Origin: Candidatus Eiseniibacteriota bacterium
GTDB taxonomy: Bacteria; Eisenbacteria; RBG-16-71-46; CAZAMP01
Length of the DNA: 64,000 nt
Assembly (NCBI GenBank): GCA_965224245.1
Contig: OZ245046.1
Location: 5,344,001-5,408,000, forward strand
Direction of reading: 5' to 3'
A program made the position numbers and the translations under genes. How positions within the stretch are numbered: the first letter of the stretch is position 1; the number at the start of each line of letters is the position of its first letter. The notes under the pieces were generated by a model. It worked only from the letters and a program-made list of their open reading frames with translations. It was not told the DNA's origin and did no database searches. Below, piece after piece: positions 2 to 62,485 of the stretch.

Positions 2-286
2 TCGTTCGTGAACGATCGCTGGGAGGTCGTGGTCGACTTCGCGACGACCGGCATGATCGAGTACAAGTGGACGGCGGACGCCGTCTGGACGGTACAGCAG
101 TTCGGTACCGACGGCGTCGGCAGCAACGCCGACAACATCACCTACGACATCGGCGCCGGCGCGCGCCGCGCTGACCACGTGTTCGCGTTCAACCCGGCCA
201 ACGGGCGAGGCTACCAGGCCGAGGGATCCACCCCGACGCTGGATGCCTCGTGGAGCCGGATCAAGGAGCTCTACGTCCACGAGTAG
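2..286 (+). CDS. 3' end of a hypothetical (probably exported) protein with the short C-terminal W-x-R-I-K-x2-Y tail; truncated by window start
   Basis: Frame is open from base 2 to TAG at 284-286; ends ...STPTLDASWSRIKELYVHE; followed by an intrinsic terminator. Confidence 0.75.
   Translation, partial: SFVNDRWEVVVDFATTGMIEYKWTADAVWTVQQFGTDGVGSNADNITYDIGAGARRADHVFAFNPANGRGYQAEGSTPTLDASWSRIKELYVHE
233..286 (+). other. Short C-terminal motif, copy 1 (PTLDASWSRIKELYVHE*)
   Basis: Matches the tail at the C-terminus of four other proteins in the window. Confidence 0.7.
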
Positions 287-309
287 AGGCTCACCGGCTC
301 GAATTCGAC

Positions 310-346
310 GTGGCGGAGCGCTACGATGTGGCGCTCCGCCATTTTT
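310..346 (+). terminator. Rho-independent terminator
   Basis: GTGGCGGAGCGCTAC-gat-GTGGCGCTCCGCCAT stem followed by TTTT, 23 nt after the stop at 286. Confidence 0.85.
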
Positions 347-389
347 GTGCCGCAAACCGTCGCGTCCCGAGAGCCCGGGAGTCCGTCAG

Positions 390-1664
390 ATGTCGCGTTC
401 CGAGATCCGTATTCCCATCACGGCGCCGCGCTGGGTGCGCGACGGTTTCGTCTACGAGGCCTTCCCCCGTTGCCACGGCCCTCGCGGCACGCTCGACGAC
501 GTCATCGACGATCTCGACCGGCTGCGGACGCTCGGCGTGCGCACGCTGTGGCTGATGCCGGTCCATCCGATCGGATGCGAGCGGCGCAAGGGGACGTGGG
601 GCTCGCCGTACGCCGTGCGCGACTACACGCGCGTGGATCCGCTCCTGGGCGGCGACGACGCGCTGATCCGGCTCGTCGAGCGCGCGCACGATCGGTCGAT
701 CCGTGTGATCGTCGACTGGGTGGCCAATCACGCTGCGTGGGACAACACGCTTCGCGAGCGTCACCCGGACTGGTTCCGGCGCAACGCGGCGGGCCGGCGA
801 CATCCCCCGGTTCCCGACTGGGACGACGTGATCGACCTCGACTACCGATCCCGCGCGCTTCGCGAGTACATGTCCGCCTGCATGATCGACTGGGTTCGCC
901 TTTTCGATCTCGACGGCTTTCGCTGCGACGTGGCGGCGATGATCCCCATGGACTTCTGGCGCGAGACGATCGCGCGCGCCGACATGGTGAAGCGGGATCT
1001 GTTCTGGCTGGCCGAGGCCGAGGGCCGGATCGTGCACGATCGGGCGTTTCACGCCACGTACGACTGGAGCCTGTACGGGGCGCTGGTCGAGGTCGCCCGC
1101 GGCCGGCGTCCCGCGGCCGACGTCGCGCGTGTGGTCGCGCGGAGCGAGCGCGAGCTTCCCGAGGGGGCGTTGCGACTCTCGTTCGTGGAGAACCACGACA
1201 AGACGCGCGCGGTCTCCGTGTTCGGGCTCCGACGTGCGCGCGCGGCTTTCGTGCTGACGATGTTCCTGCCCGGACTGCCACTGGTGTACGCGGGTCAGGA
1301 GCGAGGCGCCGAGGGGTGGACATCGATCTTCGAGCGCGGGCCGATCGACGGCGGCGACGCGGAGTGGGAGTCGGAGGTGGCCCGTCTGGCCGCCGTCCGG
1401 AGCGCGTCGCCCGCGCTGGCGGCCGGGTCGTTTCGACCGCTGGCGACGACCGAGCCCCGGTCGCTGGTCGCGTTCGAACGCGCCGGCGCCGGAGAGCGCA
1501 TCGTGTGCGTGGCCAACCTCGGCTCGCGTCCGGCGGCGCTCGTGCTGGAGGACGCCGCCGGCGGGCGCGACCTGATGACCGACACGACGATGACGCTCGA
1601 TCCGGGTCGCCCCGCCGTGCTCGCGCCGGATGAGGTGATCGCGGTCCGGCTCGGAGTCTCCTGA
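390..1664 (+). CDS. Alpha-amylase family glycoside hydrolase (GH13)
   Basis: GH13 regions: LWLMPVHP, GSPYAVRDY, DWVANH, DGFRCDVA (nucleophile), WLAE, FVENHD; ATG 390 after GGGAG. Confidence 0.9.
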   Translation: MSRSEIRIPITAPRWVRDGFVYEAFPRCHGPRGTLDDVIDDLDRLRTLGVRTLWLMPVHPIGCERRKGTWGSPYAVRDYTRVDPLLGGDDALIRLVERAHDRSIRVIVDWVANHAAWDNTLRERHPDWFRRNAAGRRHPPVPDWDDVIDLDYRSRALREYMSACMIDWVRLFDLDGFRCDVAAMIPMDFWRETIARADMVKRDLFWLAEAEGRIVHDRAFHATYDWSLYGALVEVARGRRPAADVARVVARSERELPEGALRLSFVENHDKTRAVSVFGLRRARAAFVLTMFLPGLPLVYAGQERGAEGWTSIFERGPIDGGDAEWESEVARLAAVRSASPALAAGSFRPLATTEPRSLVAFERAGAGERIVCVANLGSRPAALVLEDAAGGRDLMTDTTMTLDPGRPAVLAPDEVIAVRLGVS

Positions 1665-2087: not shown

Positions 2088-2431
2088 CCGATCCTCCTCC
2101 CGCGTCGCTCCACCGCGCGACACGGCGATTCTAGCACCCGGCGTCTCTGGTACGAACGCCGCCACGAGGAGGTTCCCACGCTCACGATCAGCAACGCGTC
2201 CAGCTGATCGACCCGACCGACGCGCCACTCGGGTGCTCGACCCGGCGCGACGAACGACGATCGAATCCTCACATTTTCGTCCAACCGGTTACGGACGCGT
2301 CCGGCGCACGTACCATTGGCGGTGACGGTACGTCGATGCCGAGCCGCGCGGGGCACCCGGCCGGGCCCCGACCGTCCACCGCCGGCCGGTGGGTGCTCGA
2401 GCGCCGCTCTCGACCCAGCGGAGGAAGAGCC

Positions 2432-4705
2432 ATGGAACACGCACGGCCGAGCCCCGAACGGGTGACCCGTCGAGTCACCACGTCCGCCCTCGCGATCGGA
2501 GTCTCCTTTGCCCTCTGGCTCCTGACCGCCGCTCCTCCATCGCTCGCCGGCACGCGGTCCGACCTCGCCCGCCGGGCCGGGACGGCGCTCGAGTTCGTCG
2601 GCAGCTGGCCCTACGGTCCCACGTACGCGGTCGACGTGGACGCCGAGCGTGACCTGATCTTCATCGGCTCGGGCGGCGCGGTGCTCGTGCTCGACGGGAC
2701 CGATCGCACGAACCCCACGCTGATCACCGACGACGTCCGCACGGTCGGCCTCGTCGAGGATCTCTTCTACGACGCGGACGATCGCGACCTCTACGTGGCC
2801 GCTGGCGACGGTGGGCTCGAGATCTGGAACCTGGACACGCCTTCGGCGCCGGCGAGGCTGAGTCGCACCGAGGTGCTGTACGCCGACGTCGAGACACCTG
2901 TGCGCGAGGTGGACGTGTACGGCGAGTGCGCGGTCGTGGAGTGCTCGTGGGGGTACGTGCACTCGCTCGACGTGTCCGATCCGGCGAACCCCGTGCACGT
3001 GTCGCTGAACGGCACGATGGGGAACCCGTCACACGACATCTACGTGTCGCCGGATGGCCAGGCGCACACCACCGGCGCGCAGCGCTATCAGCGGCTCGAC
3101 ATCTCCACCGGCGGCGTGCTTCTCGGCTCCGGCGCGCACGACTTCACGTACGGTGCCGGCGCGGTCTACGGGACCGACGAGGTCGCGTACGTCAGCTACG
3201 AGGGCAATCTCTGGATTCTGGATCTGTTCGCACCCGGGTTCCCGGCCTGGAGCGTGACCGACGTGGACGGCATCGCCGACCTCGTCGTACACGATGGGAT
3301 CGCCTACATCATCAACGACGGCGGCCTTCACGTGTGGAACGTGACCGACCACCGGAACCCGTTCCACGTGGGCTCGACCGGCGGCAGCTATCTGGCCAGG
3401 AAGCTCGTGGTGGCCGAGGGGTACGCATACGTCGCCGAGAGCCACCTGGGCGTCCGCATCATCGAGATCGGCGACGGGACCGCGCCGGTGGAGGTGGGGC
3501 GATACCGGACGTTGTCGGTGACCTACGACACCGTGGTGCAGGGCGACCATGCCTATCTCGCACACGGCTCGGACGGCCTCATCGTCGTCGACCTGAGCGA
3601 TCCGACCCTCCCCGAGACCGCCGCCCAGCTCCCGTTCCTCGGCCCGAGCTACGACGTCACGCTCGACGGAGACCACGCCTACGTGGCCAACGTCGGTAGC
3701 GGGGTCAGCGTCGTCGACATCAGCGACCCGACGAACCCGGTGGAGGTGGGGCGGCACGACGCGTACAGCACCTATCGCATCGACGTCGCGAACGGGATGG
3801 CATACGTGGTGGAGTCCACGCCGTCGCCGGAGATCCTCCACGTGGTCGACGTGAGCGATCCCACCGCGCCCATCGAGCGGGGATCGCTCCACATGTACGA
3901 CTTCATCTGGGAGGTGTTCGTCGTCGGCGATCTCGTGTACGTGGCCAACGACGATCTCGGCCTTCGCATCGTCGATGCGTCGGACCCGGCCACGCCGAGG
4001 GTGATCGGCACCTACGCGGCGGGCAGCGTCCACGACGTGCAGGTCGTGGGGAGTCTCGCGCACGTGACGTCGGCCGAGTTCGGAGGCGGCTATCTCGTTC
4101 TCGACGTGACCGATCGCACGAGCCCATCGCTCGTCACGCTCTACAATCCGTCGGGCTGGCTGCACCCGTTCCACGTGGCGGTCGCCGGAGACGTGACGTA
4201 CCTGGGCGAACCGCAGGGTCTGCCCGGCATTCACGTCCTCGACGTGTCCGACGTCGAGAACCCGGTCGAGCTGGAGGAGATCGTTCCGCCGGGAGATCTG
4301 TTCAACCTCACCGCGGCGGGGAACCGTCTCTACGTGTCGGACGGCGCGGCGGGGGTCCAGATCTTCGTCAACGAGTCGGTGGTAGCGGTCGGCGAGGGTC
4401 CGGGCTCGGGAGCTCTGCACCCGGGTATTGCGCGCGTGTGGAATGCGCCGAGCCCGTTCGCGCCGTCGACGGCGTTCCGGATCGTTCCGCATGACCGTAT
4501 GGAGAACGCGCGGCTGGTGGTCTACGACGCGCTGGGGCGTGAGGTGAGACGGTTTCCGATCGGCGCGCTGCCGGCGTCGGGCGCGGAGATCGTCTGGGAC
4601 GGACGCGACGACGCGGGGCGCGTGTTACCCGCGGGGGTCTACTACTACCGTCTGGTTCACGCCGGCGGGAGGTCGGCGGCGCGCCGGACGATGATCATCC
4701 GATGA
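2432..4705 (+). CDS. Exported LVIVD-repeat (beta-propeller) protein with C-terminal FlgD-Ig/T9SS-CTD-like domain
   Basis: Signal peptide; many YAYVA..GL.IVDVSDP.NP repeats; C-terminus PSPF..LVVYDALGREVR..WDGRDDAGRVLPAGVYYYRL. Confidence 0.85.
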   Translation: MEHARPSPERVTRRVTTSALAIGVSFALWLLTAAPPSLAGTRSDLARRAGTALEFVGSWPYGPTYAVDVDAERDLIFIGSGGAVLVLDGTDRTNPTLITDDVRTVGLVEDLFYDADDRDLYVAAGDGGLEIWNLDTPSAPARLSRTEVLYADVETPVREVDVYGECAVVECSWGYVHSLDVSDPANPVHVSLNGTMGNPSHDIYVSPDGQAHTTGAQRYQRLDISTGGVLLGSGAHDFTYGAGAVYGTDEVAYVSYEGNLWILDLFAPGFPAWSVTDVDGIADLVVHDGIAYIINDGGLHVWNVTDHRNPFHVGSTGGSYLARKLVVAEGYAYVAESHLGVRIIEIGDGTAPVEVGRYRTLSVTYDTVVQGDHAYLAHGSDGLIVVDLSDPTLPETAAQLPFLGPSYDVTLDGDHAYVANVGSGVSVVDISDPTNPVEVGRHDAYSTYRIDVANGMAYVVESTPSPEILHVVDVSDPTAPIERGSLHMYDFIWEVFVVGDLVYVANDDLGLRIVDASDPATPRVIGTYAAGSVHDVQVVGSLAHVTSAEFGGGYLVLDVTDRTSPSLVTLYNPSGWLHPFHVAVAGDVTYLGEPQGLPGIHVLDVSDVENPVELEEIVPPGDLFNLTAAGNRLYVSDGAAGVQIFVNESVVAVGEGPGSGALHPGIARVWNAPSPFAPSTAFRIVPHDRMENARLVVYDALGREVRRFPIGALPASGAEIVWDGRDDAGRVLPAGVYYYRLVHAGGRSAARRTMIIR

Positions 4706-11576: not shown

Positions 11577-12230
11577 TTGACGAGAACCCGGACGAACACC
11601 GTCGTCCGCGCCGGAGCGATCGCCGCCCGGGCGGCCGCGACGGCGGTCGTGCTCGCCGTCCTCGTGGCGGGGACATCGCAATCCCAGAACGTCGCCGACG
11701 CACCGTCGGCCACGGAAGGACACGACGTGATGAGCTTCCATGATCTCGACACGCGCACGCTCTCCGGCGAGGAGGTCTCGCTGGGCAGCTGGGCGGGCAA
11801 GGTCGCGCTGGTCGTCAACGTCGCCTCGAAGTGCGGCAACACGCCCCAGTACGCGAAGCTCCAGGCCCTCTACGAGGAGCTCCGGGAGGACGGCCTCGTC
11901 GTGCTCGGCTTCCCGTCGAACGACTTCAGGGGTCAGGAGCCCGGCACCGCCGAGGAGATCGCCGAGTTCTGTCGCGTCAACTACGGTGTGACGTTTCCTC
12001 TGTTCGAGAAGCGACACGTGGTGGGCGAGAAGAAGGACCCCGTGTACGCGTTCCTGACCCGCGAGCTTCCGGAGCCGACGTGGAACTTCACGAAGTACCT
12101 CGTCGGTCGCGACGGCCGGGTGCGCAACCGATTCGATCCGAAGACCCCGCCCGACGATCCCGCGCTCGTGGCCGAGATTCGCGAGGCGCTCGCCGCGCCC
12201 GTGATCGGGGCCGACGCGCACACCGACTGA
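11577..12230 (+). CDS. Glutathione peroxidase family protein (Cys type) with predicted signal peptide
   Basis: VVNVASKCG.TPQY, LGFPSNDF.GQEPG, WNFTKYLV; TTG start after GGAG gives a signal peptide; alternative ATG at 11730. Confidence 0.9.
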   Translation: MTRTRTNTVVRAGAIAARAAATAVVLAVLVAGTSQSQNVADAPSATEGHDVMSFHDLDTRTLSGEEVSLGSWAGKVALVVNVASKCGNTPQYAKLQALYEELREDGLVVLGFPSNDFRGQEPGTAEEIAEFCRVNYGVTFPLFEKRHVVGEKKDPVYAFLTRELPEPTWNFTKYLVGRDGRVRNRFDPKTPPDDPALVAEIREALAAPVIGADAHTD

Positions 12231-12265
12231 CACCCGTGCCCGACACCGATGGAGAGCCTCGTCCG

Positions 12266-15200
12266 ATGAGCACACGCCGCTGGCTCGTGGCCGCACTGGC
12301 ACCGGCCGTCTGCACCCTGTCCGCGTCCGCGGTGGATCTCGACGTGTTCGGACGCTGGGAGGCCTACGAGGCCCTCGACGTCAAGGCGCTCGACCAGGTC
12401 CACGACACGGCGCGCCCCGACTCTCCCGGAGATCTGATGGCGCTCTACTACGACGCCGAGCCGGACGGTCTCCGGCTGCGCATCGATCTCTTTCGATCGA
12501 GCCGCGTGCCGCTGCTGCCGATCGGGGCGCCGCTCCGCGTGACGGCGCGGCTCACGGTGGGGCGCGAGGCGACCACGCTCGAGGTCGATCTCGACGCGCC
12601 CGGAGCAGACGGGGCGTCCGGCGCGGACGGGTCGGAGCGCGTCCGTCTCCGTGACGGGAACGGACACGAGATCGTGGACGCGATCGGCGGATGGCGCCTC
12701 GATCGGGACCTCGGCGTGCTCGAGGTGTCGCTGGCGCTCCCGCCCGGCTTCGAGCGCGCGACCCTGGACGCGGCTCGCGCGAGCGGACGATTCCCCGCCG
12801 GCGCCGCGTACGCCGACGTGATGCGCTGGGCATGCGAGACCCACGCGACCCCGATCGAGATCCTCGTGACCACCGAGATCGACGGCGTCGTCATCGACAC
12901 GATCTCGGGCACCGAGGCCGCCCGGGGCGGGAGCCACAACATCGCCTTCGTCCACCACGGCAACCAGGGCATCACGTACTCCACGGTGCTCCGGGGCGAG
13001 CGCGGCGAGAGCCCGGGCCTGGAGTGCAGCGCCGCCAATCCCGACGACGGCTTCGACGAGCTCCTGGCCCTCCACGAGTGCACGGGCGTCCCCGGCGCCT
13101 TCCACCTCTCGGGCACGCTCCAGACGGCGGCCGAGTGGCACGACCCCACGTTCAACCAGTGGCTCGCCGACGGCGCCGCCGCCGGCTGGGCCGACATGAT
13201 CACGTCGGCCTACGGGCAGCACATCATGCCCTTCGCCCAGCACGCGATGAACGAGTGGGCGGTCAACGTCGAGGCCGACATGATCGACTGGCGTTACGAC
13301 TTCGTCCCGCGCGTGGCCTGGGTGCCCGAGCGCGTGTGGCTCGAGAGCCCCGACGCCGACGGCAACGGTATCGACGCCTCGTGCGGCGTCGTGGACCCCA
13401 CACTGGTCGACAACTGGCTCCAGCACGGCGTGGACGCGGTGATCCTCGACGACGCATGGCACATGGCCTACTACGACGGTCCGTTCGACGACCGGCAGGT
13501 CTACACGCTCTGGAACGGCCTCAGGGTGGTGCCGATCGACAACGACTTCGTGGGCGCGGTCAACCACGACTGGGGCGCCGCGTGGAACATGATCGTGGGC
13601 CTGTCGCCCGACGAGCTGATGGTCTACGGCAACGACTGGGAGTTCGCCGCCGAGGTGAGCCAGGGGGCCGACAACCCCGAGGCGCTCAACAACTACGTCA
13701 ACATCATCCTCCAGGCCCAGGCCAGCTCGGCCACCGTGCACGTGTGGCGGCTGACCGATGCGATCTACGAGCCCGCGTTCCAGTCCGGCACGGGCGGCAT
13801 CGTGGTGCAGAACGCCACGTATGGGCTTCTCGGCGCTCACGGCGGATACGGCGGGAGCTGCAACGGCTGGTACACCGACTGGGCCGGCTACGTGGGCCCG
13901 GACAACTCGGACGCCCACGATCCCAAGTGGGACTACGGCACGATCTGGAACAACGCGTGGACGAAGCTGTCGGGCGTGCCCTCCAACGACGTCTCCGAGG
14001 CCGGCTGGTACACGATGATGTCGATGCTGCACGAGACCGGCTGGCACGACGACGGCCAGATCTCGGGCTGGATCCACCACTACTCCAATCACATCAAGAA
14101 CGCGAACGTCTACGCCGAGGCGGCGCGCTGGGCGGGCGGTCTGTACGCCGAGAACGCGGGCGCGTTCCCGGCCGATCTCGACGAGGACGGGGTCGAGGAG
14201 CTCGTGATCTACAACGACCGCCTGTACGCCGTGTTCGAGAGCGTCGGGGGGCGCCTGGCCTGGATGTTCGCCAAGGGAATCGACCACGCCTATCCGGTCA
14301 TCGGCAACGATCCGGTGTACTGGGCCGACACGAACGGCGACTTCAACGAGACGAACCACGTGGCCACGCTCTCCGACGTGAGCGTGGGCGGTCGGGATCG
14401 TCAGTTCGATCTGTACGCGCTCGAGGTCATCGAGGGCATCGGCGACGACGTGTCGATCCGGCTCTCGCATCCCGACGTGTCGAAGACGATCTCGGCCAGC
14501 GTCGGCGATCCGTTCCTCCGCGTGCGCTACGACAACCGCGGCCAGGATACCTACGTGAAGTCCGGGTGGTCGCCGCACCTGACCTCGCTCATCTGGAGCG
14601 CCGACATGGAGCGCGTGTGGGGCGACGGCGGCACGTACTTCGGCTACCAGGACCCCAACACCAACGCCACGGGGGCGGTGGTGGCGGGCAGCGCCGGCGC
14701 CGCGCACAACGGGCAGTTCGAGCTGACGCTCCTCGGGGGCGACGAGCTCTACGCGGACGCGCCCTTCGAGGTGCTGCTGTACGGTGGCTACGCCTCGACG
14801 GCCGACGCATCCGATCACGTGGCCGAGCTGGAGGCGCTCGCGGCAGGACTCGTCGACGAGATCGGACCTCGGCCCCTGTCCGCGCTCTACTATCCCGGTC
14901 CGGACCGGCTCGTCGTGTTCACCGACCAGACGACCGCGATCGCCAGCGTCGACGTGACCGGCTTCGGCATCGACGCCGATGACGATGGTGTGGCCGAGGT
15001 CGGCATCGGCGGGGGATCCACGCTCCGGACGACGACCGACGGGCGCCGGTTCGAGATCGATCTCGAACCCGCGACCGCGTCGGCGCTGGAGGTGCTCACG
15101 GCGCCGGATCTCGAGCTCCTGGTGGCGGCCGGATCGATGGAGGACCTCGCGGGCAACGGCAACGACACGATCACGAACGCCGACGACGTGGCGCTCGTCC

Positions 15201-16219
15201 GACTTCCCGAGACGACGATCACGATCGACGGCTTCATCGATCCCGCCGAGTGGACGAGCGACACCCGCCGAGTGGACGATTACTGGGACTCGGGCTGGAC
15301 CACGTCGGCGCCGGCCGACACCAACGAGGTGCAGGCGCTCTTCTGCACCTGGGACGACACGTACCTGTATCTCGGCGTCCAGGGCAAGGTGTACGGCAAC
15401 AGCTGGATCCTGTACCTCGATACCGACCCCGGCGGCCCGAACGGCGAGGTGGACCTGACCGCCATCGACGCCTGGGAGCGGGGGGCGACGTTCTCGAGGC
15501 CCGGCTTCCGCGTGGACTGGCAGTACGGGTGCTACCAGCATCAGTCTCCGTTCGACACCGACGGCTTCTTCCGCGTGACGAGCCCGACGGCCGCCGTCGA
15601 CAACTCGTCCCTCGTGCAGAAGGCGTTCGACTCGATGCACGTGTACGGCGACGACGGCGGCAGCGAGCTGGCCATCCCCTGGGACGTCCTGTACGAGCTC
15701 GGACCGGGCGTCGTGCCCGCGAACGCGTCGATCGCGTTCGTGGCGTCGCTCTGCTGGGATCCCGAGCCTGCGGGCGAGCTGGGCGGCGACGTCGCGCCCG
15801 ACAACGTGTCCGCGGTGCTCCCCGAGGTGGACGGCGCGGTCGAGGTCGTCGTGGATGTGAACGGCGACGGGATCCCGGACGATCCCGGCCTCCTCGACGC
15901 CGGGGATGCGTCCGGTCCCGCGACCCGCCCCGGTGCGCGTCTGATCGATCGCGTGGCGCCCAATCCGCTCCGATCGGGTACGACGATCCAGTTCGCGTTC
16001 GACTCCCCCCGGGGCCGATCCGAGCGCGTGGCCGTGCGCGTGTTCGACGTGGCCGGCCGCCTCGTGGCCGATCTCTTCTCGGGGTCGCTCGAGCCGGGGC
16101 GTCACGAGATCCGCTGGGATCGCCGATCCGGTGACCGCGCGGTGCCCGCGGGCAGCTACCTCGTCCGGGTCGACGTCGGGGACCGCGTCGACGTAGGCAA
16201 GACGACCGTTCTCGACTGA
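12266..16219 (+). CDS. Large exported GH57-like glycoside hydrolase with DOMON/CBM9-like module and C-terminal FlgD-Ig/T9SS-CTD-like domain
   Basis: Signal peptide; FVHHGNQ, WVPERVW, YGNDWEF; DLDEDGVEELVIYND; ITIDG..WDDTYLYLGV; PNP..VFDVAGRLV..PAGSYLVRV. Confidence 0.75.
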   Translation: MSTRRWLVAALAPAVCTLSASAVDLDVFGRWEAYEALDVKALDQVHDTARPDSPGDLMALYYDAEPDGLRLRIDLFRSSRVPLLPIGAPLRVTARLTVGREATTLEVDLDAPGADGASGADGSERVRLRDGNGHEIVDAIGGWRLDRDLGVLEVSLALPPGFERATLDAARASGRFPAGAAYADVMRWACETHATPIEILVTTEIDGVVIDTISGTEAARGGSHNIAFVHHGNQGITYSTVLRGERGESPGLECSAANPDDGFDELLALHECTGVPGAFHLSGTLQTAAEWHDPTFNQWLADGAAAGWADMITSAYGQHIMPFAQHAMNEWAVNVEADMIDWRYDFVPRVAWVPERVWLESPDADGNGIDASCGVVDPTLVDNWLQHGVDAVILDDAWHMAYYDGPFDDRQVYTLWNGLRVVPIDNDFVGAVNHDWGAAWNMIVGLSPDELMVYGNDWEFAAEVSQGADNPEALNNYVNIILQAQASSATVHVWRLTDAIYEPAFQSGTGGIVVQNATYGLLGAHGGYGGSCNGWYTDWAGYVGPDNSDAHDPKWDYGTIWNNAWTKLSGVPSNDVSEAGWYTMMSMLHETGWHDDGQISGWIHHYSNHIKNANVYAEAARWAGGLYAENAGAFPADLDEDGVEELVIYNDRLYAVFESVGGRLAWMFAKGIDHAYPVIGNDPVYWADTNGDFNETNHVATLSDVSVGGRDRQFDLYALEVIEGIGDDVSIRLSHPDVSKTISASVGDPFLRVRYDNRGQDTYVKSGWSPHLTSLIWSADMERVWGDGGTYFGYQDPNTNATGAVVAGSAGAAHNGQFELTLLGGDELYADAPFEVLLYGGYASTADASDHVAELEALAAGLVDEIGPRPLSALYYPGPDRLVVFTDQTTAIASVDVTGFGIDADDDGVAEVGIGGGSTLRTTTDGRRFEIDLEPATASALEVLTAPDLELLVAAGSMEDLAGNGNDTITNADDVALVRLPETTITIDGFIDPAEWTSDTRRVDDYWDSGWTTSAPADTNEVQALFCTWDDTYLYLGVQGKVYGNSWILYLDTDPGGPNGEVDLTAIDAWERGATFSRPGFRVDWQYGCYQHQSPFDTDGFFRVTSPTAAVDNSSLVQKAFDSMHVYGDDGGSELAIPWDVLYELGPGVVPANASIAFVASLCWDPEPAGELGGDVAPDNVSAVLPEVDGAVEVVVDVNGDGIPDDPGLLDAGDASGPATRPGARLIDRVAPNPLRSGTTIQFAFDSPRGRSERVAVRVFDVAGRLVADLFSGSLEPGRHEIRWDRRSGDRAVPAGSYLVRVDVGDRVDVGKTTVLD

Positions 16220-16384: not shown

Positions 16385-17413
16385 ATGAGGTCGAGAGTCT
16401 CGATGCTCGTGTCGGTGGCCGTCGCCGCGTCGCTCGCGGCGGGCGACGCGCCGGCCGAGGTCGTCATCGAACCGGTCATGGGCGACGTCCAGCTCGACGT
16501 CGCCGAGGTGGAGTGCTCGGACTATCCATCGGGCTGCATGCTCTGCGTGAACGACGTCGACAACCCGGGTGACACCCGCCTGATCGTCGCGTGCGGGCAG
16601 CGGCTCCCCGGCGTCGCCACGTGGGCGAACGTTCAGGGCACCGTGCGCCCGTTCGTGGTGCTGGACGGCGTGGAGGTCACGCCGTCGCTGCTGCCGTTCG
16701 GCTCGCGCGTCCGGACCCGGCTGGGATGGCTCGATCGCGCGTATCCACCGAGCTGTCCCGGCGGCGTGCCCCCGGGGGTCACCTATGCGATCGGAGACGA
16801 TCCCACCCGCACCGTCACCGGTGACGGTGAGGCGACGGTCGAGGTCGACGCGGGGTTCGGGGACGTCATTCCGTTCACGTTCGACGTCTGCAGCCAGTTC
16901 GTGTGGTGGGGCGTGGGGTGCGACATCGCGGGCTCGCAGTCGTATCGATGGTCGTTCCTCGCGCCCGAGGTTCCGCGCGCGTTCGCGCTCGCGGCCGGCG
17001 ACGCCGAGCCGATCTCGCTGCCCGGGGACGGGATCCTGCTGGACGTCCTCGACTCACCGGGTGGAGCGGTCACGATCACGCGCGTCGACGCCGAGCCGCC
17101 GGCGGGGCCGGCGTTCGTCGGGGCGCCGGGGTACTGGGACGTCGAAACCGACATGCCCTCGGGGTCGTACTCGGCACGGGTCGAGCTGAGCTTCGACGTG
17201 GGGACGCTCCCCGCGGAGGCCGAGCCGTCGGAGCTGGTGATCGCGGTCTACGACCCGTCGCGGGATCGCTGGGAGTCGCTGGAGACGACGCTCGATCTGG
17301 ATCTCGGCCTGGCCGGTGCGACCACCGAGCGGCTGTCGATGTTCATCGTGACCATGCCGCCGGCGGTCCCGGTGGAGACGCTCTCGTGGGGATCGTTGAA
17401 GGCGACGTACTGA
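16385..17413 (+). CDS. Exported Cys-containing hypothetical protein with short C-terminal tail
   Basis: GAGG RBS; signal peptide; C-terminal beta domain (YDPSRDRWESLET..TERLSMF); ends PVETLSWGSLKATY. Confidence 0.8.
   Translation: MRSRVSMLVSVAVAASLAAGDAPAEVVIEPVMGDVQLDVAEVECSDYPSGCMLCVNDVDNPGDTRLIVACGQRLPGVATWANVQGTVRPFVVLDGVEVTPSLLPFGSRVRTRLGWLDRAYPPSCPGGVPPGVTYAIGDDPTRTVTGDGEATVEVDAGFGDVIPFTFDVCSQFVWWGVGCDIAGSQSYRWSFLAPEVPRAFALAAGDAEPISLPGDGILLDVLDSPGGAVTITRVDAEPPAGPAFVGAPGYWDVETDMPSGSYSARVELSFDVGTLPAEAEPSELVIAVYDPSRDRWESLETTLDLDLGLAGATTERLSMFIVTMPPAVPVETLSWGSLKATY
17369..17413 (+). other. Short C-terminal motif, copy 2 (PVETLSWGSLKATY*)
   Basis: Shared tail motif. Confidence 0.75.
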
Positions 17414-21504: not shown

Positions 21505-21570
21505 TCAGTCGGAGGCGCTACCGCGATAGAGCGCCTTGACGCGACTCCACGTGCTGACCTCGACGAGCGG
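21505..21570 (-). other. Short C-terminal motif, copy 3 (PLVEVSTWSRVKALYRGSASD*)
   Basis: Shared tail motif. Confidence 0.75.
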
Positions 21571-22209
21571 GTCGGCGCACGAGGTGCCGCAGGCCACGTG
21601 CCCGCCGGGGCCGTCGACCTCGACGTCGCCCCAGCCGAGGTGGGCCCGGCAGATCTCGAACGTGGTCGGCAGGCAGTCCGCGACCAGGGCGATGCCGCCG
21701 ATGCGGGGATCCCCGGCCGCGCGAAGGAAGCCCGGTCCCCCCGAGCGGACGCTGAAGAAGCCGATCTTCGTGACGCCGTCGTCGTTGTCGGTCACGAGAT
21801 AGCACCCGTCCGACCAGGTGACGGCGTTTCCGGAGCCCGACGCGGGCCACGCCACGGGCTCGACCTGGGGGATCTCGGAGCCTCCGGTGCACAGCGTCCA
21901 GCCGTACAGGTCCAGCGACGGGACGTACTCGATCCCGAACTGGATGCCGCCGATGCCTCCCGACACGCCCGGTCCCGCGCCGACCGGAACCCCGCCCACG
22001 ACGAGCTCGGCGAAGTTCGGCGTGAGCTCGCCGAGGTCGAGGATCTCGGCGTCGATGCGATCGCAGGCCAGGTTGCCGTCCGCGACGACCGAGTCGTTAC
22101 AGCCCGAATAGGATGGGGCGATGAACATGACGTCGATGGAGTAGCTGTCGACGGCGTGTGTCGTGCCGACGGCGATCGGGATCAGGAGAAACGCAAGGGG
22201 TGCCTTCAT
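21505..22209 (-). CDS. Exported Cys-rich hypothetical protein with short C-terminal tail; paralog of 61754-62485
   Basis: Signal peptide MKAPLAFLLIPIAVGTTHA; FGIEY..WPASGSG core; ends PLVEVSTWSRVKALYRGSASD. Confidence 0.8.
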   Translation of the reverse strand: MKAPLAFLLIPIAVGTTHAVDSYSIDVMFIAPSYSGCNDSVVADGNLACDRIDAEILDLGELTPNFAELVVGGVPVGAGPGVSGGIGGIQFGIEYVPSLDLYGWTLCTGGSEIPQVEPVAWPASGSGNAVTWSDGCYLVTDNDDGVTKIGFFSVRSGGPGFLRAAGDPRIGGIALVADCLPTTFEICRAHLGWGDVEVDGPGGHVACGTSCADPLVEVSTWSRVKALYRGSASD

Positions 22210-22283
22210 GCCTCGAAACCTCCAGCGGAGCAGGGCGAGCGGCATCATACCACCGGCACTCTTCCGTGCGCGGCGCGGTCGCA

Positions 22284-23390: not shown

Positions 23391-23514
23391 GCGCGTCCTC
23401 CAGGCCTCGAGGGGGGCGGGGGTACGTGACACCTTACCTCGTTCACCGATGTCGCTCGACGCCCGTTCCCCCGGCCGCTCGACATCCCCACCGGGCGGGG
23501 ATAGCATCCGGCCC

Positions 23515-24114
23515 ATGGATCAGCTGAAAGCCTTTCTCGACGCCACCGAGAACCGACCGCCCCGGGACACGCTGGTGGCCGCGCTCGCCCTCGGGCCGCC
23601 GCCGGGCCGAGCGCTCGACCTGGGGTGCGGAGCGGGCTGTGACACGGTCGGGCTTCTCCGCCACGGGTACACCGTGACCGCCGTCGACGTGCATCCGGAC
23701 GCCGTGGCGCGGACCCGGGCGACCGTATCGCGCGCAGGAGACGAGCTCGACGACCGGCTCGATACCCGGGTGGCGTCGTACGCGTCGCTGGACGTCGGGC
23801 CCGGCGAGATCGCGCTGATCAACGCGAGCTTCTCCCTTCCGTTCTCCGAGCCGTCGGAGTTCGGTTCGACGTGGAATCGCTTCGCGACGTGGCTCGCGCC
23901 GGGCGGCTTCTTCGTCGGGCAGCTCTTCGGCGACCGGGACGAATGGAACGGACGCGAGGGAGCGCCGTCGACGTTTCAGACCCGGGCCGAGGTCGACCGG
24001 CTGGTGGCGCCGTATCGCGTTCGAATGCTGGACGAGGTGGAGCGCGACGGCGTGACCGCGATCGGGACCCCCAAGCACTGGCATGTCTTCCACCTCATCC
24101 TGGAGAAGCGGTAG
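23515..24114 (+). CDS. Class I SAM-dependent methyltransferase
   Basis: ALDLGCGAGCD motif I, VTAVD, LAPGGFFVGQLF. Confidence 0.85.
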   Translation: MDQLKAFLDATENRPPRDTLVAALALGPPPGRALDLGCGAGCDTVGLLRHGYTVTAVDVHPDAVARTRATVSRAGDELDDRLDTRVASYASLDVGPGEIALINASFSLPFSEPSEFGSTWNRFATWLAPGGFFVGQLFGDRDEWNGREGAPSTFQTRAEVDRLVAPYRVRMLDEVERDGVTAIGTPKHWHVFHLILEKR

Positions 24115-28061: not shown

Positions 28062-28075
28062 TGCGAGTGACTCCT

Positions 28076-33375: not shown

Positions 33376-33463
33376 GTCAAGACCTCCTGTTGCCCGAGTA
33401 GTCGGGCGCCCTGTTTCCAGTCGTTGCGGCATCGAATCGTGCGCCGCGCTCGCCTGCAAAACG

Positions 33464-34708: not shown

Positions 34709-34736
34709 CGGATCCTCGTCGTTTCCGCGTTTCCGA

Positions 34737-53835: not shown

Positions 53836-54939
53836 ATGCGACTCGGACCCACCGGCGCCTCGCTCGCGCGCGCCTCGGTGGCGATCTCCATCGCGATGAT
53901 CCCGATCGCGTCGCCGGCGATCGCGGAGATCCTCCTCGTCCGTCCCGACGGCACGGGCGATCACCCGACGATCCAGGCCGCGCTGGACGCGTCCCATCCC
54001 AGCGACATCATCGAGCTGGCCGACGGCATCTTCCGCGGTCCCGGCAATCGGGACGTCACGACGTCCGGCCAGAGCGCCACCCTCGTTCGTTCCGCGAGCG
54101 GAGATCCGAGCGCCTGCGTGATCGAGTGCGACGGGAGTCCCGCCGAGCCGCACCGCGCGTTTCTCGTCGTGGACGACTCGCTGTGGCTGGTGGGGGTGAC
54201 GATCCGGGGCGGCTACGCGAACGACCTCTTCGGAGGGGGCGCGATCGCGTCGCTGTCGTCCTGGCTACCCCTGGACGACTGCCGCTTCGTGGGCAACGAG
54301 TCCGCGACCGCGGGCGGCGCGCTGTCGATCATCGGGGAGACCGACTCGTTTCTGTCCGCCGAGCTCGCCGACTGCGTGTTCACCGGAAACCGAGCGGCAC
54401 GCGGCGGCGCGATCGCGGTCCAGGCGACCCCCACGATCGAGCGGTGCGTGATCACGGGCAACGTGGCCACCGAGTACGGCGGCGCGATCTTCGGAACGCG
54501 AACCGGAGCCGTGCGCGAGACGACGCTGGCAGGCAATCTCGGGGGCGTGGCCGGAGGGGGCGTTTACGTGACGGAATCGGTCGACGTCTTCCGGACGATC
54601 TTCTGGGCGAACTGCGCGCCGACCGGGGCGAGCGTGCAGCTCGAGGGGCCGGCGCGCGGGGGCGGCCGCATTCGTTGCTCGATCGTCCGGGCCGAGGACG
54701 TGGTCGGCGGCGTGGCCATCGACGACACGGACCGGGACGAGAATCCGCTCCTCTGCGATCCCCGGGCGTGTTCGGAGGCTCCGACCGACGCCGGCGACGC
54801 GGCGCTCGACGCCGCGTCGGTGTGCGTGGCCGAGCGGAGCCCGTGCGGCGAACGAATCGGCGCGCGTGGCGTCGCATGCTCGGGGACGACACCCGTTCTC
54901 CGGACGAGCTGGACTCGGATCAAGGCGTGCTACCGCTGA
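53836..54939 (+). CDS. Exported right-handed beta-helix (pectin-lyase-like) protein with short C-terminal tail
   Basis: Signal peptide; PTIQAALD; repeated F.GN.A..GGAI; NPLLC..SPC..IGA.G..C; ends PVLRTSWTRIKACYR. Confidence 0.85.
   Translation: MRLGPTGASLARASVAISIAMIPIASPAIAEILLVRPDGTGDHPTIQAALDASHPSDIIELADGIFRGPGNRDVTTSGQSATLVRSASGDPSACVIECDGSPAEPHRAFLVVDDSLWLVGVTIRGGYANDLFGGGAIASLSSWLPLDDCRFVGNESATAGGALSIIGETDSFLSAELADCVFTGNRAARGGAIAVQATPTIERCVITGNVATEYGGAIFGTRTGAVRETTLAGNLGGVAGGGVYVTESVDVFRTIFWANCAPTGASVQLEGPARGGGRIRCSIVRAEDVVGGVAIDDTDRDENPLLCDPRACSEAPTDAGDAALDAASVCVAERSPCGERIGARGVACSGTTPVLRTSWTRIKACYR
54892..54939 (+). other. Short C-terminal motif, copy 4 (PVLRTSWTRIKACYR*)
   Basis: Shared tail motif. 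Confidence 0.75.
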
Positions 54940-57756: not shown

Positions 57757-59013
57757 ATGGGAGAAGGCCATGGCTCGGCGCGCGTGGATGCGTGGGCTGG
57801 TCACGTGACGTTCGCACTGCCCGCCACGCCACGGGCCGACACGATCTCGGTTCCCGACTACGCGTCACTCACCGATGCTCTCGCGGCCGCCGCGTCCGGC
57901 GACACCGTCCTGGTCACGGCCGAGACCGTGCACGTCACGACCGATCAGATCGACATCCCGGCAGGTGTATGTCTCCGGAGCCTCAACGGCCGGGACGCGC
58001 ACACGATCTACGTGCCCCAGTACGGCATCAAGTTCGCCCCGGACGTGACGGACCCGGAACCCAGCATCCCCGAGGGGTTCACGATCCACGACGCCACCTC
58101 GGGTGCCTCGGTGAAGTTCCGCAACAATCCCGACGCGAGAGCCCTCGACAATCGCATCGTCAGCCTGGCAGGAGGTGCGTTTTCGGTCGGCGGCGGCGGG
58201 GGCGTCATTCACGGCAACGAGATGCTCTGTGCTCCTTTCGCCCTCGATCGGGCCCTGGACATCAATACCGGCGCCGAGACGTACCTCGAGATCTCATCCA
58301 ACGTGATCCTCTGCCCGGGTCTCGGTCTGTCCGTGTATGACGAAAAGGTAGGTTCCGCCTACGTCGAGTTCAGAAACAACACGATCGTTCACCCCGGCTA
58401 CGTCACGCAGGCCTGCAGCTGGTCCTTCGTGGACGACGTGATCGTGGTGTCCCACAACATCCTCTATGGGTTCTGGATCGACTGCTATGACCTGAGCGGC
58501 GGCGCAAGTGGCTTCAGCATGGACTACAACTGCATCTGGTTCTCGGGCTCGAGTCCTGAAACCGACTGTGATCTCTATTCTTGGCCCGGCAACTTCGAGG
58601 CGGATCCGCTCTTCTGTGACATCTCGGGACCGTCCTCGCTCGACCTCCGCCTCCGGCCCGACTCCCCGTGCCTCCACGGCGGCGAAGGGGGCTCCCTCAT
58701 CGGCGCTCTGGGTGCGGGCTGTGGCGTGGTCCACGTCGACGAAGCCGGCCGCGCGGCCACGAGTCTCGGTCTTCGTGTCATACCGGCTCCGGTGGTCGGA
58801 CGCGCATCCATCGCCTTCGACGAATCGCACGCCGGACGCTCCGCCTTCATCACGATCTACGACGTGACGGGCCGTCTCGTCGTCGAGCTCGAAGCCGAAC
58901 ACTCTCCCGTCACCTGGATCCGACGTGGCAAGGACGGTACCCCAGGTGTGTACTTCGTCGAGCTCAGAGCCAGCACGGGCGCCCGGAACGTCCAGCGAAT
59001 CGTCGCCAGATGA
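57757..59013 (+). CDS. Beta-helix exported-type protein with C-terminal FlgD-Ig/T9SS-CTD-like domain; probable frameshift in the signal peptide
   Basis: DYASLTDAL, NNTI, DYNCIW, GNFEADPLFC..DSPC..LIGALGAGC, IYDVTGRLV..PGVYFVEL; best RBS/ATG (57770) is out of frame. Confidence 0.7.
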   Translation: MGEGHGSARVDAWAGHVTFALPATPRADTISVPDYASLTDALAAAASGDTVLVTAETVHVTTDQIDIPAGVCLRSLNGRDAHTIYVPQYGIKFAPDVTDPEPSIPEGFTIHDATSGASVKFRNNPDARALDNRIVSLAGGAFSVGGGGGVIHGNEMLCAPFALDRALDINTGAETYLEISSNVILCPGLGLSVYDEKVGSAYVEFRNNTIVHPGYVTQACSWSFVDDVIVVSHNILYGFWIDCYDLSGGASGFSMDYNCIWFSGSSPETDCDLYSWPGNFEADPLFCDISGPSSLDLRLRPDSPCLHGGEGGSLIGALGAGCGVVHVDEAGRAATSLGLRVIPAPVVGRASIAFDESHAGRSAFITIYDVTGRLVVELEAEHSPVTWIRRGKDGTPGVYFVELRASTGARNVQRIVAR

Positions 59014-60558: not shown

Positions 60559-60565
60559 GGACACG

Positions 60566-61696
60566 ATGGCACCCGAGGATCCCACCCGGACCCCCGATCG
60601 GCCCGACGCCACGATCCGCGCCATCGAGCGCGATGCGTGTCCGGCGTGTGGGGCTGAGGCCACGTGGAATCCGACGAAGGTGGCGCTCGTGTGTCCCTAC
60701 TGCGGGACCGAGGCCCCGGGCGAGCGAGACCTCACGACGGGCCGGGTGCGCGAGATCGATCTGGCGTCGGCGCTTCGCGAGATCCCCGACGCGCTTCGCG
60801 GGTGGAAGGCCGAGAAGCGCGCGGTGCGCTGCCGGAGCTGCCAGGCGGTCTCGATCTTCGATCCCGAGCGCGTGGCCCAGCGCTGCGAGTTTTGCGGCTC
60901 TCCCGAGATCGTCGACTACGACGAGATCAAGTCGCCGCTCCGTCCCCAGAGCATCCTGCCGTTCACGGTCGACGAGGCGCGCGTGCGCGAGTCGATCCGG
61001 AGGTGGTACCGGAGCAAGTGGCTCGCGCCCAGCGCGCTCAAGAACCGGGCGCTCCTCGACACCGTCCGTGGCGTATACTTGCCGTACTGGACGTTCGACG
61101 CCAGCGTGCGCGCGAGCTGGGACGCGGATGCGGGCCACTACTACTACACGAACGAGACGGCTCGTGACTCCAGCGGCAAGCAGGTCGTGCGCCGGGTGCG
61201 ACACACGCGCTGGCAGCACGCGTCGGGGCGACTGGAGCATTTCTTCGACGACGAGCCGGTGCCGGCGTCGACGGGGGTGCACCCGGATCTCCTGCGCGAC
61301 ATCGAGCCGTTTCCCGGTGACGATCTCGTTCCGTACGACACGGCGTTCCTGTCGGGCTTCGTGGTGGAGCACTATCAGGTCGTCCTGATCGACGCGTACC
61401 GGCAGGCGCGCGAGTCGATGGATCGCAAGCTCGAGGCGTTCTGCGCGCGGCAGGTTCCCGGCGACACGTACCGGAATCTCCGCGTGCAGGCCGACTACGG
61501 GGGCGAGACGTTCAAGCACATGCTCGTCCCGGTGTGGCTCCTCACGTACCGGTACGGCGCGGAGACGTTCCAGGTGGTCGTGAACGGACACACCGGTGAG
61601 ATCGCCGGGGAGTACCCGCGAAGCGCGGTCAAGATCGCCGTCCTGATCCTGGCGGCGCTCGTGCTCGTGACCGTGGTGGCGCTCGTGTCGAAGTGA
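60566..61696 (+). CDS. Multi zinc-ribbon protein with C-terminal TM helix
   Basis: CPAC, CPYC, CRSC, CEFC pairs; GVYLPYWTFD; LVPVW..Y; VNGHTGEI.G.YP. Confidence 0.8.
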   Translation: MAPEDPTRTPDRPDATIRAIERDACPACGAEATWNPTKVALVCPYCGTEAPGERDLTTGRVREIDLASALREIPDALRGWKAEKRAVRCRSCQAVSIFDPERVAQRCEFCGSPEIVDYDEIKSPLRPQSILPFTVDEARVRESIRRWYRSKWLAPSALKNRALLDTVRGVYLPYWTFDASVRASWDADAGHYYYTNETARDSSGKQVVRRVRHTRWQHASGRLEHFFDDEPVPASTGVHPDLLRDIEPFPGDDLVPYDTAFLSGFVVEHYQVVLIDAYRQARESMDRKLEAFCARQVPGDTYRNLRVQADYGGETFKHMLVPVWLLTYRYGAETFQVVVNGHTGEIAGEYPRSAVKIAVLILAALVLVTVVALVSK

Positions 61697-61753
61697 CCCC
61701 GGAGCCGTCGCGCCCGTCTGGTGACCGGGGTCGAGCCGCCGACAGGAGGAGGG

Positions 61754-62485
61754 ATGCATCTCGAGCGACTCGCGCGACATGCGTACCCGATCGCCGCGCT
61801 CGTCTGGCTCACGGCCGCGGCGCACGCGGGTTCCCACGCCGCCGACGAGACCCCGCGGCTGTTGCTGCACTGGCCCACGGACGACTACGTGGGGCCGTGC
61901 ACCGAAGGCTTCGTGCCCGAGACCTGTGGCGACATGGACCCCAACACCCGGTACTCCGGACCGTTCTTCAACGGCTGGACCCTGGCCGCGCTCGATCTAC
62001 CCGAGCACCTGGCGTCGTACGAGCCACCGATCCGGGAGCTGTGGTTCGGCATCGAGTACGACGGCATCTTCTTCGACCAGGTCTGTCGCGTGGACGAGCT
62101 CGTGGGCACGGACGGAATCGAGGCACCGCCGTGGCCCGAGAGTGGAAGCGGCGTGACGCTGCGCTACGCCGCGCCCATCCTCGACGACGACGGCGACGGA
62201 CTGGTCCCGATCTGGGGCATGACGTTCCAGCCGCACTCGCAGGATCCAGCGGGCGATGCGCGACTGCGGATCGTGCCGCATCCCGTCCGGGAGACGGTCG
62301 GCTTCGTCGGCGGTGACGGGAACGAGTACCTGATCTGCGAAGACGTCCTCCCGATCCTGGATCTCCAGCTGTCCGAGACCGACCCGACCGGGAACGGTAC
62401 CAACCGATGCGAGGCGGGGTGCGCCACGCCGGTCCGATCCACGTCGTGGGCCCGGATTCGCTCGGCGTACCGGGTGCCGCAATAG
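61754..62485 (+). CDS. Exported Cys-containing hypothetical protein with short C-terminal tail; paralog of 21505-22209
   Basis: AGGAGGAGG RBS; signal peptide ending AAAHA; FGIEY..WPESGSG; ends PVRSTSWARIRSAYRVPQ. Confidence 0.8.
   Translation: MHLERLARHAYPIAALVWLTAAAHAGSHAADETPRLLLHWPTDDYVGPCTEGFVPETCGDMDPNTRYSGPFFNGWTLAALDLPEHLASYEPPIRELWFGIEYDGIFFDQVCRVDELVGTDGIEAPPWPESGSGVTLRYAAPILDDDGDGLVPIWGMTFQPHSQDPAGDARLRIVPHPVRETVGFVGGDGNEYLICEDVLPILDLQLSETDPTGNGTNRCEAGCATPVRSTSWARIRSAYRVPQ
62429..62485 (+). other. Short C-terminal motif, copy 5 (PVRSTSWARIRSAYRVPQ*)
   Basis: Shared tail motif. Confidence 0.75.

Follow-up and report, generated by a model that had tools for sequence, protein, structure and literature searches.

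A short C-terminal peptide shared by unrelated exported proteins of Candidatus Eisenbacteria and other bacteria: a candidate envelope address tag

Results and Discussion

Five tail-bearing genes in a 64-kb window

The subject of this analysis is a 64-kb stretch of DNA (referred to below as the window; contig OZ245046.1, positions 5,344,001 to 5,408,000) of a Candidatus Eiseniibacteriota bacterium, in which five scattered genes of exported proteins (the carriers) end in a common peptide of roughly 18 residues (the tail). Translation of the window placed each of the five tails directly before a stop codon (Table 1). The N-termini of the four complete carriers, judged by eye from the translations, have the appearance of Sec-type signal peptides, in agreement with a preliminary description of this DNA, in which the tail had been pointed out as a candidate protein sorting signal.

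Table 1. Positions of the tails, their carriers and the proteins with a type IX secretion system (T9SS)-type C-terminal domain within the window (HMM, hidden Markov model).
Feature	Position	Strand	Motif to stop (residues)	Tail HMM (bits)	Basis and remarks
Tail 1, PTLDASWSRIKELYVHE + stop	233..286	+	3	16.9	carrier 2-286, cut by window edge
Carrier 2 (P0002), 342 aa	16385..17413	+			translation; signal-peptide-like N-terminus
Tail of carrier 2, PVETLSWGSLKATY + stop	17369-17413	+	0	18.8	
Carrier 3 (P0003), 247 or 234 aa	21505..22248	-			translation and third-codon-position G+C profile; start 22248 or 22209
Tail of carrier 3, PLVEVSTWSRVKALYRGSASD + stop	21505-21570	-	6	23.0	
Carrier 4 (P0004), 367 aa	53836..54939	+			signal peptide, right-handed beta-helix with Chlamydia-PMP repeats, Cys cap, tail
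Tail of carrier 4, PVLRTSWTRIKACYR + stop	54892-54939	+	1	11.0	junction analysis
Carrier 5 (P0005), 243 aa	61754..62485	+			family of hypothetical proteins; 243-aa form on record
Tail of carrier 5, PVRSTSWARIRSAYRVPQ + stop	62429-62485	+	4	14.0	
Large exported protein, T9SS-type C-terminal domain (FlgD_ig or weak Por_Secre_tail)	2336-4705	+			Pfam
Large exported protein, T9SS-type C-terminal domain (FlgD_ig or weak Por_Secre_tail)	11831-16219	+			Pfam
Large exported protein, T9SS-type C-terminal domain (FlgD_ig or weak Por_Secre_tail)	19287-21383	+			Pfam
Large exported protein, T9SS-type C-terminal domain (FlgD_ig or weak Por_Secre_tail)	57757-59013	+			Pfam

The six frames of the window were scanned with a strict (P-[VTL]-x3-4-[ST]-W-x-[RS]-[ILV]-[KR]-x2-Y), a core ([ST]W.[RS][ILV][KR]..Y) and a loose (W..[ILVM][KR]..[YF]) pattern. 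Each of them matched exactly the same five places and nowhere else, and the distances between the end of the motif and the stop codon were 1, 3, 0, 4 and 6 residues. When residues were permuted within stop-to-stop segments (1000 rounds), the mean count of the loose motif was 0.94 (maximum 4), and none of the rounds reached the observed number of 5; for motifs lying at most 6 residues from a stop the mean was 0.07 and the maximum 2, against 5 observed. An independent tail HMM, trained on 166 tails that all came from other genomes, placed the five window tails at the top ranks among 962 six-frame segments (118,135 aa), with 11.0 to 23.0 bits (Table 1) compared with 7.3 for the next segment. The observation of five tails is real and far beyond chance. 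Moreover, since the independent HMM ranks them first, the window tails are members of a wider tail family, of which they represent a looser dialect.

Among the passengers (the carriers without their tails), that of carrier 4 is matched by the Pfam models Chlam_PMP and Beta_helix. No Pfam or NCBIfam family was matched by carrier 2, for which a language-model (Atlas) look-up returned unnamed clusters and only weak leads. The passengers of P0003 and P0005 show a weak resemblance to each other (BLASTP E 7e-4 over 123 residues, in an alignment that includes the tail). The preliminary description had ascribed the passengers to at least three different folds; this is plausible, and is established for one of them only, the beta-helix of P0004. 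The language-model neighbours of P0005 are unnamed clusters, among which the commonest phylum is Krumholzibacteriota; one neighbouring cluster (score 0.86) has Cohesin on 16% of its members, a weak lead that would be of interest if the tail were a docking peptide.

The starts of two carriers required attention. Carrier 5 lies in an open reading frame (ORF) spanning 61721-62485, and its start was corrected according to the database record, which begins at 61754. To judge by the profile of G+C content at third codon positions (GC3), the long ORF 21505-22782(-) does not encode protein before about residue 180; because GC3 places the coding onset there, the start of carrier 3 is taken to be 22248 or 22209. 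The first 170-180 codons of this ORF are an out-of-frame shadow of a NUDIX/GNAT gene (22284-23516, minus strand), and the G+C content of their position 1 is 0.92-0.96.

The tail family

One genome per species (GTDB set) was scanned with one degenerate DNA pattern for [ST]-W-G-x-h-K-A-L-[FY]-R-stop. This yielded at least 130 loci, compared with a chance expectation of about 9 (our own estimate, for a pattern of about 37 bits). Among the matches listed, 133 of the 134 distinct ones form the end of a long ORF; match L031, a 16-residue ORF, is probably due to chance. A profile search with 131 tail 32-mers against 1.84 billion protein cluster representatives found 1455 representatives at E<=0.001 and none at E<=1e-10, the latter being expected for so short a motif.

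The family consensus is C-x-P-V-P-V-E-x-[ST]-[ST]-W-G-x-[IV]-K-A-L-[YF]-R-end. The tail can accordingly be divided into (i) a flexible linker, often preceded by one or two Cys residues, (ii) a P-V-(P)-V-E stretch followed by two or three residues, (iii) a [ST][ST] cap and (iv) a 9-residue unit, W-G-x-[IVL]-[KR]-A-L-[YF]-R, with which the protein normally ends. The window dialect is looser, with S, T or A in place of G, Y in place of F, and 0-6 additional residues. Several positions outside the scan pattern are also conserved in the 166 tails: E at W-4 (92/166), V at W-5 (80/166) and P, A or S at W-6 (137/166). The residue after [YF] is R in 147 of these tails, and among the 150 best of the 1455 profile hits W+8 is R in 127 cases and K in 5; P0005 and P0011 have R instead of the internal K. 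The G at W+1, the A at W+5 and the acidic P-V-E stretch are conserved across phyla.

Cys is enriched upstream of P-V-E, at W-9 to W-11 (at W-10 in 31/166 tails, at W-9 in 47 of the 150 best profile hits), often as a C-x-C or C-x3-C pair, which suggests that a disulfide seals the passenger ahead of the flexible tail.

The lineages were tallied from the locus titles of the matches listed in the genome scan. These name Eisenbacteria (20 loci), Ignavibacteria/Melioribacteraceae (13, including the cultured Rosettibacter primus and a metagenome-assembled genome of Melioribacter roseus), Krumholzibacteria (9), Fibrobacteraceae (8), Latescibacteria (7), Gemmatimonadota (5), "Bacteroidetes/Bacteroidia" (4), Zixibacteria (2) and Effluviviaceae (1), and 61 loci have no group name in the title. 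Proteobacteria, Firmicutes, Actinobacteria, Flavobacteriia, Bacteroides and Porphyromonas appear in no locus title among the matches listed. The NCBI taxonomy places Rosettibacter inside the Fibrobacterota-Chlorobiota-Bacteroidota (FCB) group, and does not place Krumholzibacteriota and Effluviviacota there; the other candidate phyla of the tally are part of the FCB radiation. These titles agree with the earlier remark on similar tails in FCB-related candidate phyla.

We also searched the family libraries for a model of the tail. None of the models of Pfam-A (2025 copy) and NCBIfam 20.0 matches it in the window carriers, in 75 complete carriers from the loci or in 15 tail-only queries; the latter had no NCBIfam match even at E<=10, and a profile search of the PDB with the tail gave 0 hits at E<=10. 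The tail thus lies outside the family models searched. PF22842, which is precomputed on several homologues of P0004, was rejected as a model of the tail: it does not track the tail and is also present on the tail-less proteins P0022, P0041, P0017 and P0033. No description of the motif was found in the literature searched, and subscription journals and paper supplements could still hold one. To judge from these sequence comparisons, the tail constitutes a large, widespread and so far unannotated family of putative short linear peptide tags of Sec-exported proteins in FCB-type bacteria.

Carriers, passengers and predicted structures

Export was assessed by a crude rule (basic, hydrophobic N-terminus with a 10-residue Kyte-Doolittle mean >=2.0). 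Such an N-terminus is present in 71 of the 75 complete carriers from the loci, and in 73 of 89 profile hits that start with M and have at least 120 aa; 7 of these also contain a lipobox-like Cys. When the 75 carriers and the window's five were trimmed of their tails, the resulting 80 passengers fell into 51 BLASTP clusters, the largest with 11 members. Pfam matches were obtained for 12 of the 75 carriers from the loci, namely Beta_helix (five times) and CHRD, LTD (lamin-tail), Cleaved_Adhesin, NHL propeller, InhA-like MAM, DUF7451 and DUF4440 (once each). The database names of ten carriers are "hypothetical protein" and, in one case, "CHRD domain-containing protein".

AlphaFold2 predicts P0004, with 21 aligned relatives, to be a right-handed beta-helix (mean pLDDT, the predicted local distance difference test score, 84.2), in which residues 350-356 have pLDDT <50 and a helix of residues 359-365 lies in blocks of pLDDT 53-60. 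The model of the Rosettibacter carrier, computed with 11 relatives, has a mean pLDDT of 82.5 and contains a signal helix and a beta-sandwich (residues 22-113, blocks mostly >90), followed by a tail in which the pLDDT falls from 69 to 51 and which forms a four-residue helix. In the models of these two unrelated folds, the tail is predicted to hang from a flexible linker, outside the passenger domain.

These data bear on the explanation that the tails have no common function and are either a chance likeness or the end of one shared folded domain. The weak similarity of P0003 and P0005, which extends beyond the tail, is compatible with it. However, the shuffled sequences never reach five motifs, an HMM built from outside sequences picks exactly the five window tails, the passengers form 51 clusters, and two different folds are modelled with the same detached tail; we regard the probability of this explanation as negligible. 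The same results support the earlier proposal of a modular peptide on unrelated Sec-exported proteins, and they speak against a single folded domain common to all carriers.

The highest 15-residue Kyte-Doolittle mean in the 166 tails is 1.18 (median 0.19), and none of them contains a membrane-span segment, in accordance with the earlier claim that the tail lacks a transmembrane helix. The amphipathicity of the short helix suggested earlier is not demonstrated: the helical hydrophobic moment of the tail is 0.51, compared with 0.40 +/- 0.18 in shuffles, 29% of which reach 0.51. Because this moment is indistinguishable from that of shuffles and the beta periodicity scores 0.58, the amphipathic helix is a reasonable reading of the consensus and not a result.

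By analogy with the helices of MinD and PBP5, the 9-residue unit might nevertheless be a basic amphipathic helix that binds to an anionic leaflet without any protein receptor. Such a lipid anchor would be consistent with the consensus, in which a helical wheel brings W, I/V, L and Y/F together on one face, flanked by K/R, with the short helix on a floppy linker modelled by AlphaFold2, with the occurrence of multiple copies and of copies at either terminus (see below), and with the change of K to R in some tails. On the other hand, the hydrophobic moment does not exceed that of the shuffles, nine residues are very short for this purpose, and the conserved G at W+1, A at W+5 and P-V-E go beyond what lipid binding should require. 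We therefore consider a pure lipid anchor unlikely.

Interchange with T9SS-type C-terminal domains

The beta-helix family of P0004 offered a direct comparison of the tail with T9SS-type domains. Of 49 homologues of P0004, whose named relatives are Candidatus Eisenbacteria, 13 end in the loose motif and 3 in one-residue variants of it, and others end in a T9SS-type domain. The passenger of this family closes in a cysteine cap (SPC...G[ALV]...C). In 14 homologues (including P0004) the cap is followed by 18-22 residues, which are the tail, and in two by the tail behind a longer linker (33 and 49 residues). Seven homologues have 102-182 residues after the cap, bearing NPF..T.I.F-type motifs of T9SS C-terminal domains, and two end within 1-4 residues. 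The same cap is therefore followed by alternative modules at one junction: within this family, the tail and the T9SS-type C-terminal domain take each other's place. This exchange fits the notion of an "address label".

It also raises the question of a secretion signal proper. According to this explanation, the tail would be a minimal C-terminal signal for an outer-membrane translocon (that of the T9SS, by way of a lineage-specific adaptor, or of another system) and would possibly be removed near P-V-E. It would account for (i) the replacement of a T9SS-type domain by the tail at the same junction, (ii) the presence of T9SS-type-domain proteins in genomes with the tail (four in the window, and neighbours of the carriers in 11 of the loci longer than 1.5 kb), (iii) the C-terminal location of the motif in 147 of the 150 best profile hits, (iv) passengers of types typical of surface or secreted proteins and (v) the conservation of P-V-E, which could be a processing site. 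Against it stand the tandem copies and those that lie between domains or follow the signal peptide (12 of 150 hits in all; see below), which are unusual for translocation signals, and the lineages of the carriers, which include no Flavobacteriia, Bacteroides or Porphyromonas and only four "Bacteroidetes/Bacteroidia" loci among the matches listed. In addition, T9SS export generally requires a folded domain of about 60-100 aa. In our judgement a secretion signal in this strict sense is somewhat improbable.

Position of the motif and extra copies

The six-frame translated loci (657,318 residues) were searched for the loose motif beyond the seeds, without the requirement of a stop. It was found at 22 places, 2 of which are artefacts; of the 20 credible ones, 17 lie 0-9 residues from a stop, and the 3 located elsewhere belong to two homologous membrane proteins and one other. 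In the 150 best of the 1455 profile hits, the last motif ends at most 3 residues from the C-terminus in 138 proteins, 4-10 residues from it in 9 and further away in 3. Credible extra copies are present in 12 of these 150 hits: the motif (i) closes each unit of about 190 residues in two- or three-unit proteins (P0085, P0087, P0094, P0105, P0152, P0178 and P0108), (ii) occurs once directly behind the signal peptide and once at the end (P0076, P0077 and P0081) or (iii) forms terminal tandem copies (P0075 and P0188). The multi-unit proteins are not fused gene calls, since their second units have no signal peptide of their own. One lipoprotein-like family with the unit of about 190 residues holds the extra copies, at each unit end, behind the signal peptide, or with up to four in tandem, and it supplies the chief evidence on whether the C-terminus must be free.

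The motif is strongly but not strictly C-terminal. The preliminary description had named matches elsewhere than at C-termini as an observation that would speak against a sorting signal; 147 of the 150 best hits do end in the motif, and the restriction breaks down for the 12 with further copies. Since credible copies lie away from the C-terminus, the motif does not seem to depend on a free chain end; this weighs against a cleaved signal of the sortase kind and favours a docking peptide. On the whole, the earlier interpretation as a sorting signal is supported in part.

The location of the motif at the end of each unit (P0085, P0108 and others), together with the flexible linker and its conserved P-V-E, would also suit a processing or turnover signal, i.e. 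a site at which a periplasmic protease frees the repeat units, or the point at which a tail-specific protease starts degradation. There is no reason, however, why at least 51 unrelated passenger groups across phyla should keep a degradation tag; most carriers are single-unit proteins, and no protease is linked to the carriers in the neighbourhoods examined. This explanation appears very unlikely.

Gene neighbourhoods of the carriers and other genes of the window

The neighbours of the carriers in the loci include T9SS-domain proteins, MatE, Maf, isocitrate dehydrogenase, Rex-like and STAS proteins. In Zixibacteria-like loci, a carrier of 135-146 aa lies between Rex-like and STAS/anti-sigma genes. 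In Melioribacteraceae (L025, L026, L029, L034, L040, L047, L070, L072 and L075), the matches listed are all one conserved protein of 130-150 aa, composed of a signal peptide, a beta-sandwich and an invariant TWGSIKALFR; its gene precedes Maf and in most loci is flanked by MatE at the opposite end. In L019-L022 (one contig), L113-L115, L060/L061 and L068, two to five small paralogous tail genes, each with its own signal peptide, follow one another in tandem.

The G+C content of the window is 66-71%. The nearest named relatives of its ClpA are Acidobacteriota/Thermoanaerobaculia, with 64-69% identity, whereas those of P0004 are Eisenbacteria. Pfam annotation of 45 further ORFs revealed housekeeping genes (2-oxoacid dehydrogenase complex, ClpS/ClpA, PheA, pyruvate kinase and asparagine synthase) and the four genes of proteins with a T9SS-type domain (Table 1), which show that the organism uses the classical FCB C-terminal domain besides the short tail. 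One of these four proteins has LVIVD repeats. The gene of carrier 2 is located 166 bp downstream of that of a 1462-aa protein with a FlgD_ig C-terminal domain, and three of the five tail genes have a T9SS-type-domain gene no more than about 3 kb away.

The longest ORF of an alpha-amylase-family gene, 243-1664(+), overlaps the end of tail gene 1 (2-286) by 44 bases; its real start is probably further downstream, e.g. the ATG at 326. A type II secretion/type IV pilus-like operon (26691-36557, minus strand) encodes a secretin, T2SS-M-like and PilM-like proteins, a PilX_N protein, three N-methyl pseudopilins, GspF and GspE. No link between this operon and the tail was found, and no search aimed at one was made.

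Function of the tail

We see about an even chance that the tail is an address or docking peptide, read by a conserved partner in the envelope that would fix the destination of the passenger. After export by Sec, the tag would be bound by a conserved, lineage-specific envelope receptor, which may be a protein or, less likely, the membrane surface, and would fold on binding. This binding would fix the fate of the passenger, which would either be retained at the envelope or cell surface or enter an export route, so that the route of the tag would be an alternative to that of the T9SS domain. Recognition would depend on the peptide as such, whether or not its carboxyl end is free, and avidity would rise with the number of copies.

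Features of the family argue for the separate parts of this scheme. The peptide, rather than the carboxyl end, is the probable object of recognition, because the extra copies are internal, in tandem or at the mature N-terminus. Docking is preferred over a cleaved secretion signal, because copies occur away from the C-terminus and in multiples, as is the case for binding modules. A protein partner seems more plausible than lipid, because polar or small positions (G, A and P-V-E) are conserved across phyla. In a wider sense, we suggest tentatively, and with more doubt than conviction, that FCB-type bacteria beyond the classical Bacteroidia may possess a second, undescribed envelope targeting system, whose receptor or translocon would read a peptide of about 18 residues instead of the T9SS domain and would place unrelated proteins on or beyond the outer membrane.

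Several observations weigh against the docking peptide. The neighbourhoods of the carriers in the loci were searched for a receptor or other machinery, and no candidate was found, only housekeeping genes or other secreted proteins. The exchange with a T9SS domain is shown for one passenger family only: a word-based homologue search with P0005 retrieved only itself and so supplied no second family, and the ORFs of the loci contain no pairs in which the tail and a C-terminal domain are swapped. Most of the internal copies belong to a single repeated-domain family, in which they could be relics of recent duplications. As to a fold adopted by the tail, its helicity rests on low-confidence AlphaFold2 segments, its moment is no different from that of shuffles, and the beta periodicity scores as well as the helical one (0.58 at 170 degrees compared with 0.51 at 100 degrees). 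Finally, the scan pattern required a stop and the consensus residues, so the taxonomic picture given by its at least 130 loci is a sample. Some explanation other than those discussed here retains a small probability, in our estimate.

The tag is abundant, with five genes in 64 kb and the 1455 cluster representatives of the profile search, and it spans several poorly known phyla as well as the culturable Melioribacteraceae and Fibrobacteraceae; no name for it was found in the family libraries and the literature searched. A tail HMM would improve the annotation of many "hypothetical" exported proteins and would delimit a sub-secretome in Eisenbacteria, Krumholzibacteria, Latescibacteria, Gemmatimonadota and their relatives, and the tag itself is a direct handle for finding its partner. 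Since it alternates with T9SS domains on the same passengers, it bears on the choice between surface routes in these bacteria. The conserved carrier of Melioribacteraceae, e.g. WP_353676332.1 of Rosettibacter primus and its counterpart in Melioribacter roseus, provides a culturable entry point for experiments.

Comparison with known systems

The nearest counterparts of the tail are the C-terminal sorting domains of the T9SS (Por_Secre_tail PF18962, FlgD_ig PF13860 and TIGR04183), which are likewise C-terminal on Sec-exported, mostly surface-type passengers of FCB lineages, and which occur in the same genomes and, in the beta-helix family, at the same junction. The tail differs from them in its length (16-20 residues compared with about 70-100), in the lack of a beta-sandwich and in that its copies can be internal or N-terminal. 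A T9SS type A C-terminal domain or FlgD_ig, or a truncated form of either, was rejected, as PF18962, PF13860 and TIGR04183 have no match on the five window carriers, the 75 carriers from the loci or the 15 tail-only queries. A folded Ig-like beta-sandwich of about 70-100 residues was likewise dismissed: only 18-22 residues follow the cap, and these are modelled by AlphaFold2 as a linker and a helix of 4-7 residues. Conversely, the tail HMM gave no score on the window's four T9SS-type-domain proteins. The preliminary view of the tail as far shorter than, and unlike, a T9SS domain is borne out by these searches.

Modular appendages of diverse exported passengers, mostly terminal and sometimes duplicated or placed at the other end, are also found among dockerins, choline-binding repeats and surface-layer homology (SLH) domains. 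These have known ligands and consist of folded modules or of repeats, 20-70 residues in length, whereas the tail consists of a single 9-residue unit and a linker and has no sequence similarity to them. The C-termini of MinD, FtsA and PBP5 resemble the tail in being very short, terminal, basic with aromatic residues, and, as proposed for the tail, unstructured until bound. The membrane-targeting helices of MinD and FtsA act on the cytoplasmic face, and the helix of PBP5 is longer; the tail differs in that its non-hydrophobic positions are unusually conserved and its amphipathicity is statistically unproven.

Two further types of terminal signal were considered and rejected. The beta-signal of the beta-barrel assembly machinery (BAM) has an aromatic residue as the very last one of an outer-membrane beta-barrel protein; in most tails R follows [YF], and the modelled passengers are a beta-helix and a beta-sandwich. 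Peptidoglycan attachment of the Lpp type uses a C-terminal lysine for cross-linking; W+8 of the tail is predominantly R, and even its internal K can be replaced by R, as in P0005 and P0011.

Tags of the LPXTG, PEP-CTERM, GlyGly-CTERM, MYXO-CTERM and IPTL-CTERM types are also short C-terminal signatures on unrelated exported proteins, with a small motif (P-V-E in the tail) before the distal part. A tag of the sortase, exosortase or rhombosortase type was nonetheless rejected, given the missing transmembrane helix, the lack of any NCBIfam match at E<=10 and the fact that the tail is not bound to the C-terminus. Shared terminal tags are the way in which sortases, exosortases, rhombosortases and the T9SS were recognised or extended, and the tail, as judged by its sequence and distribution, appears to be a new example of this known type of feature, the shared terminal tag of exported proteins.

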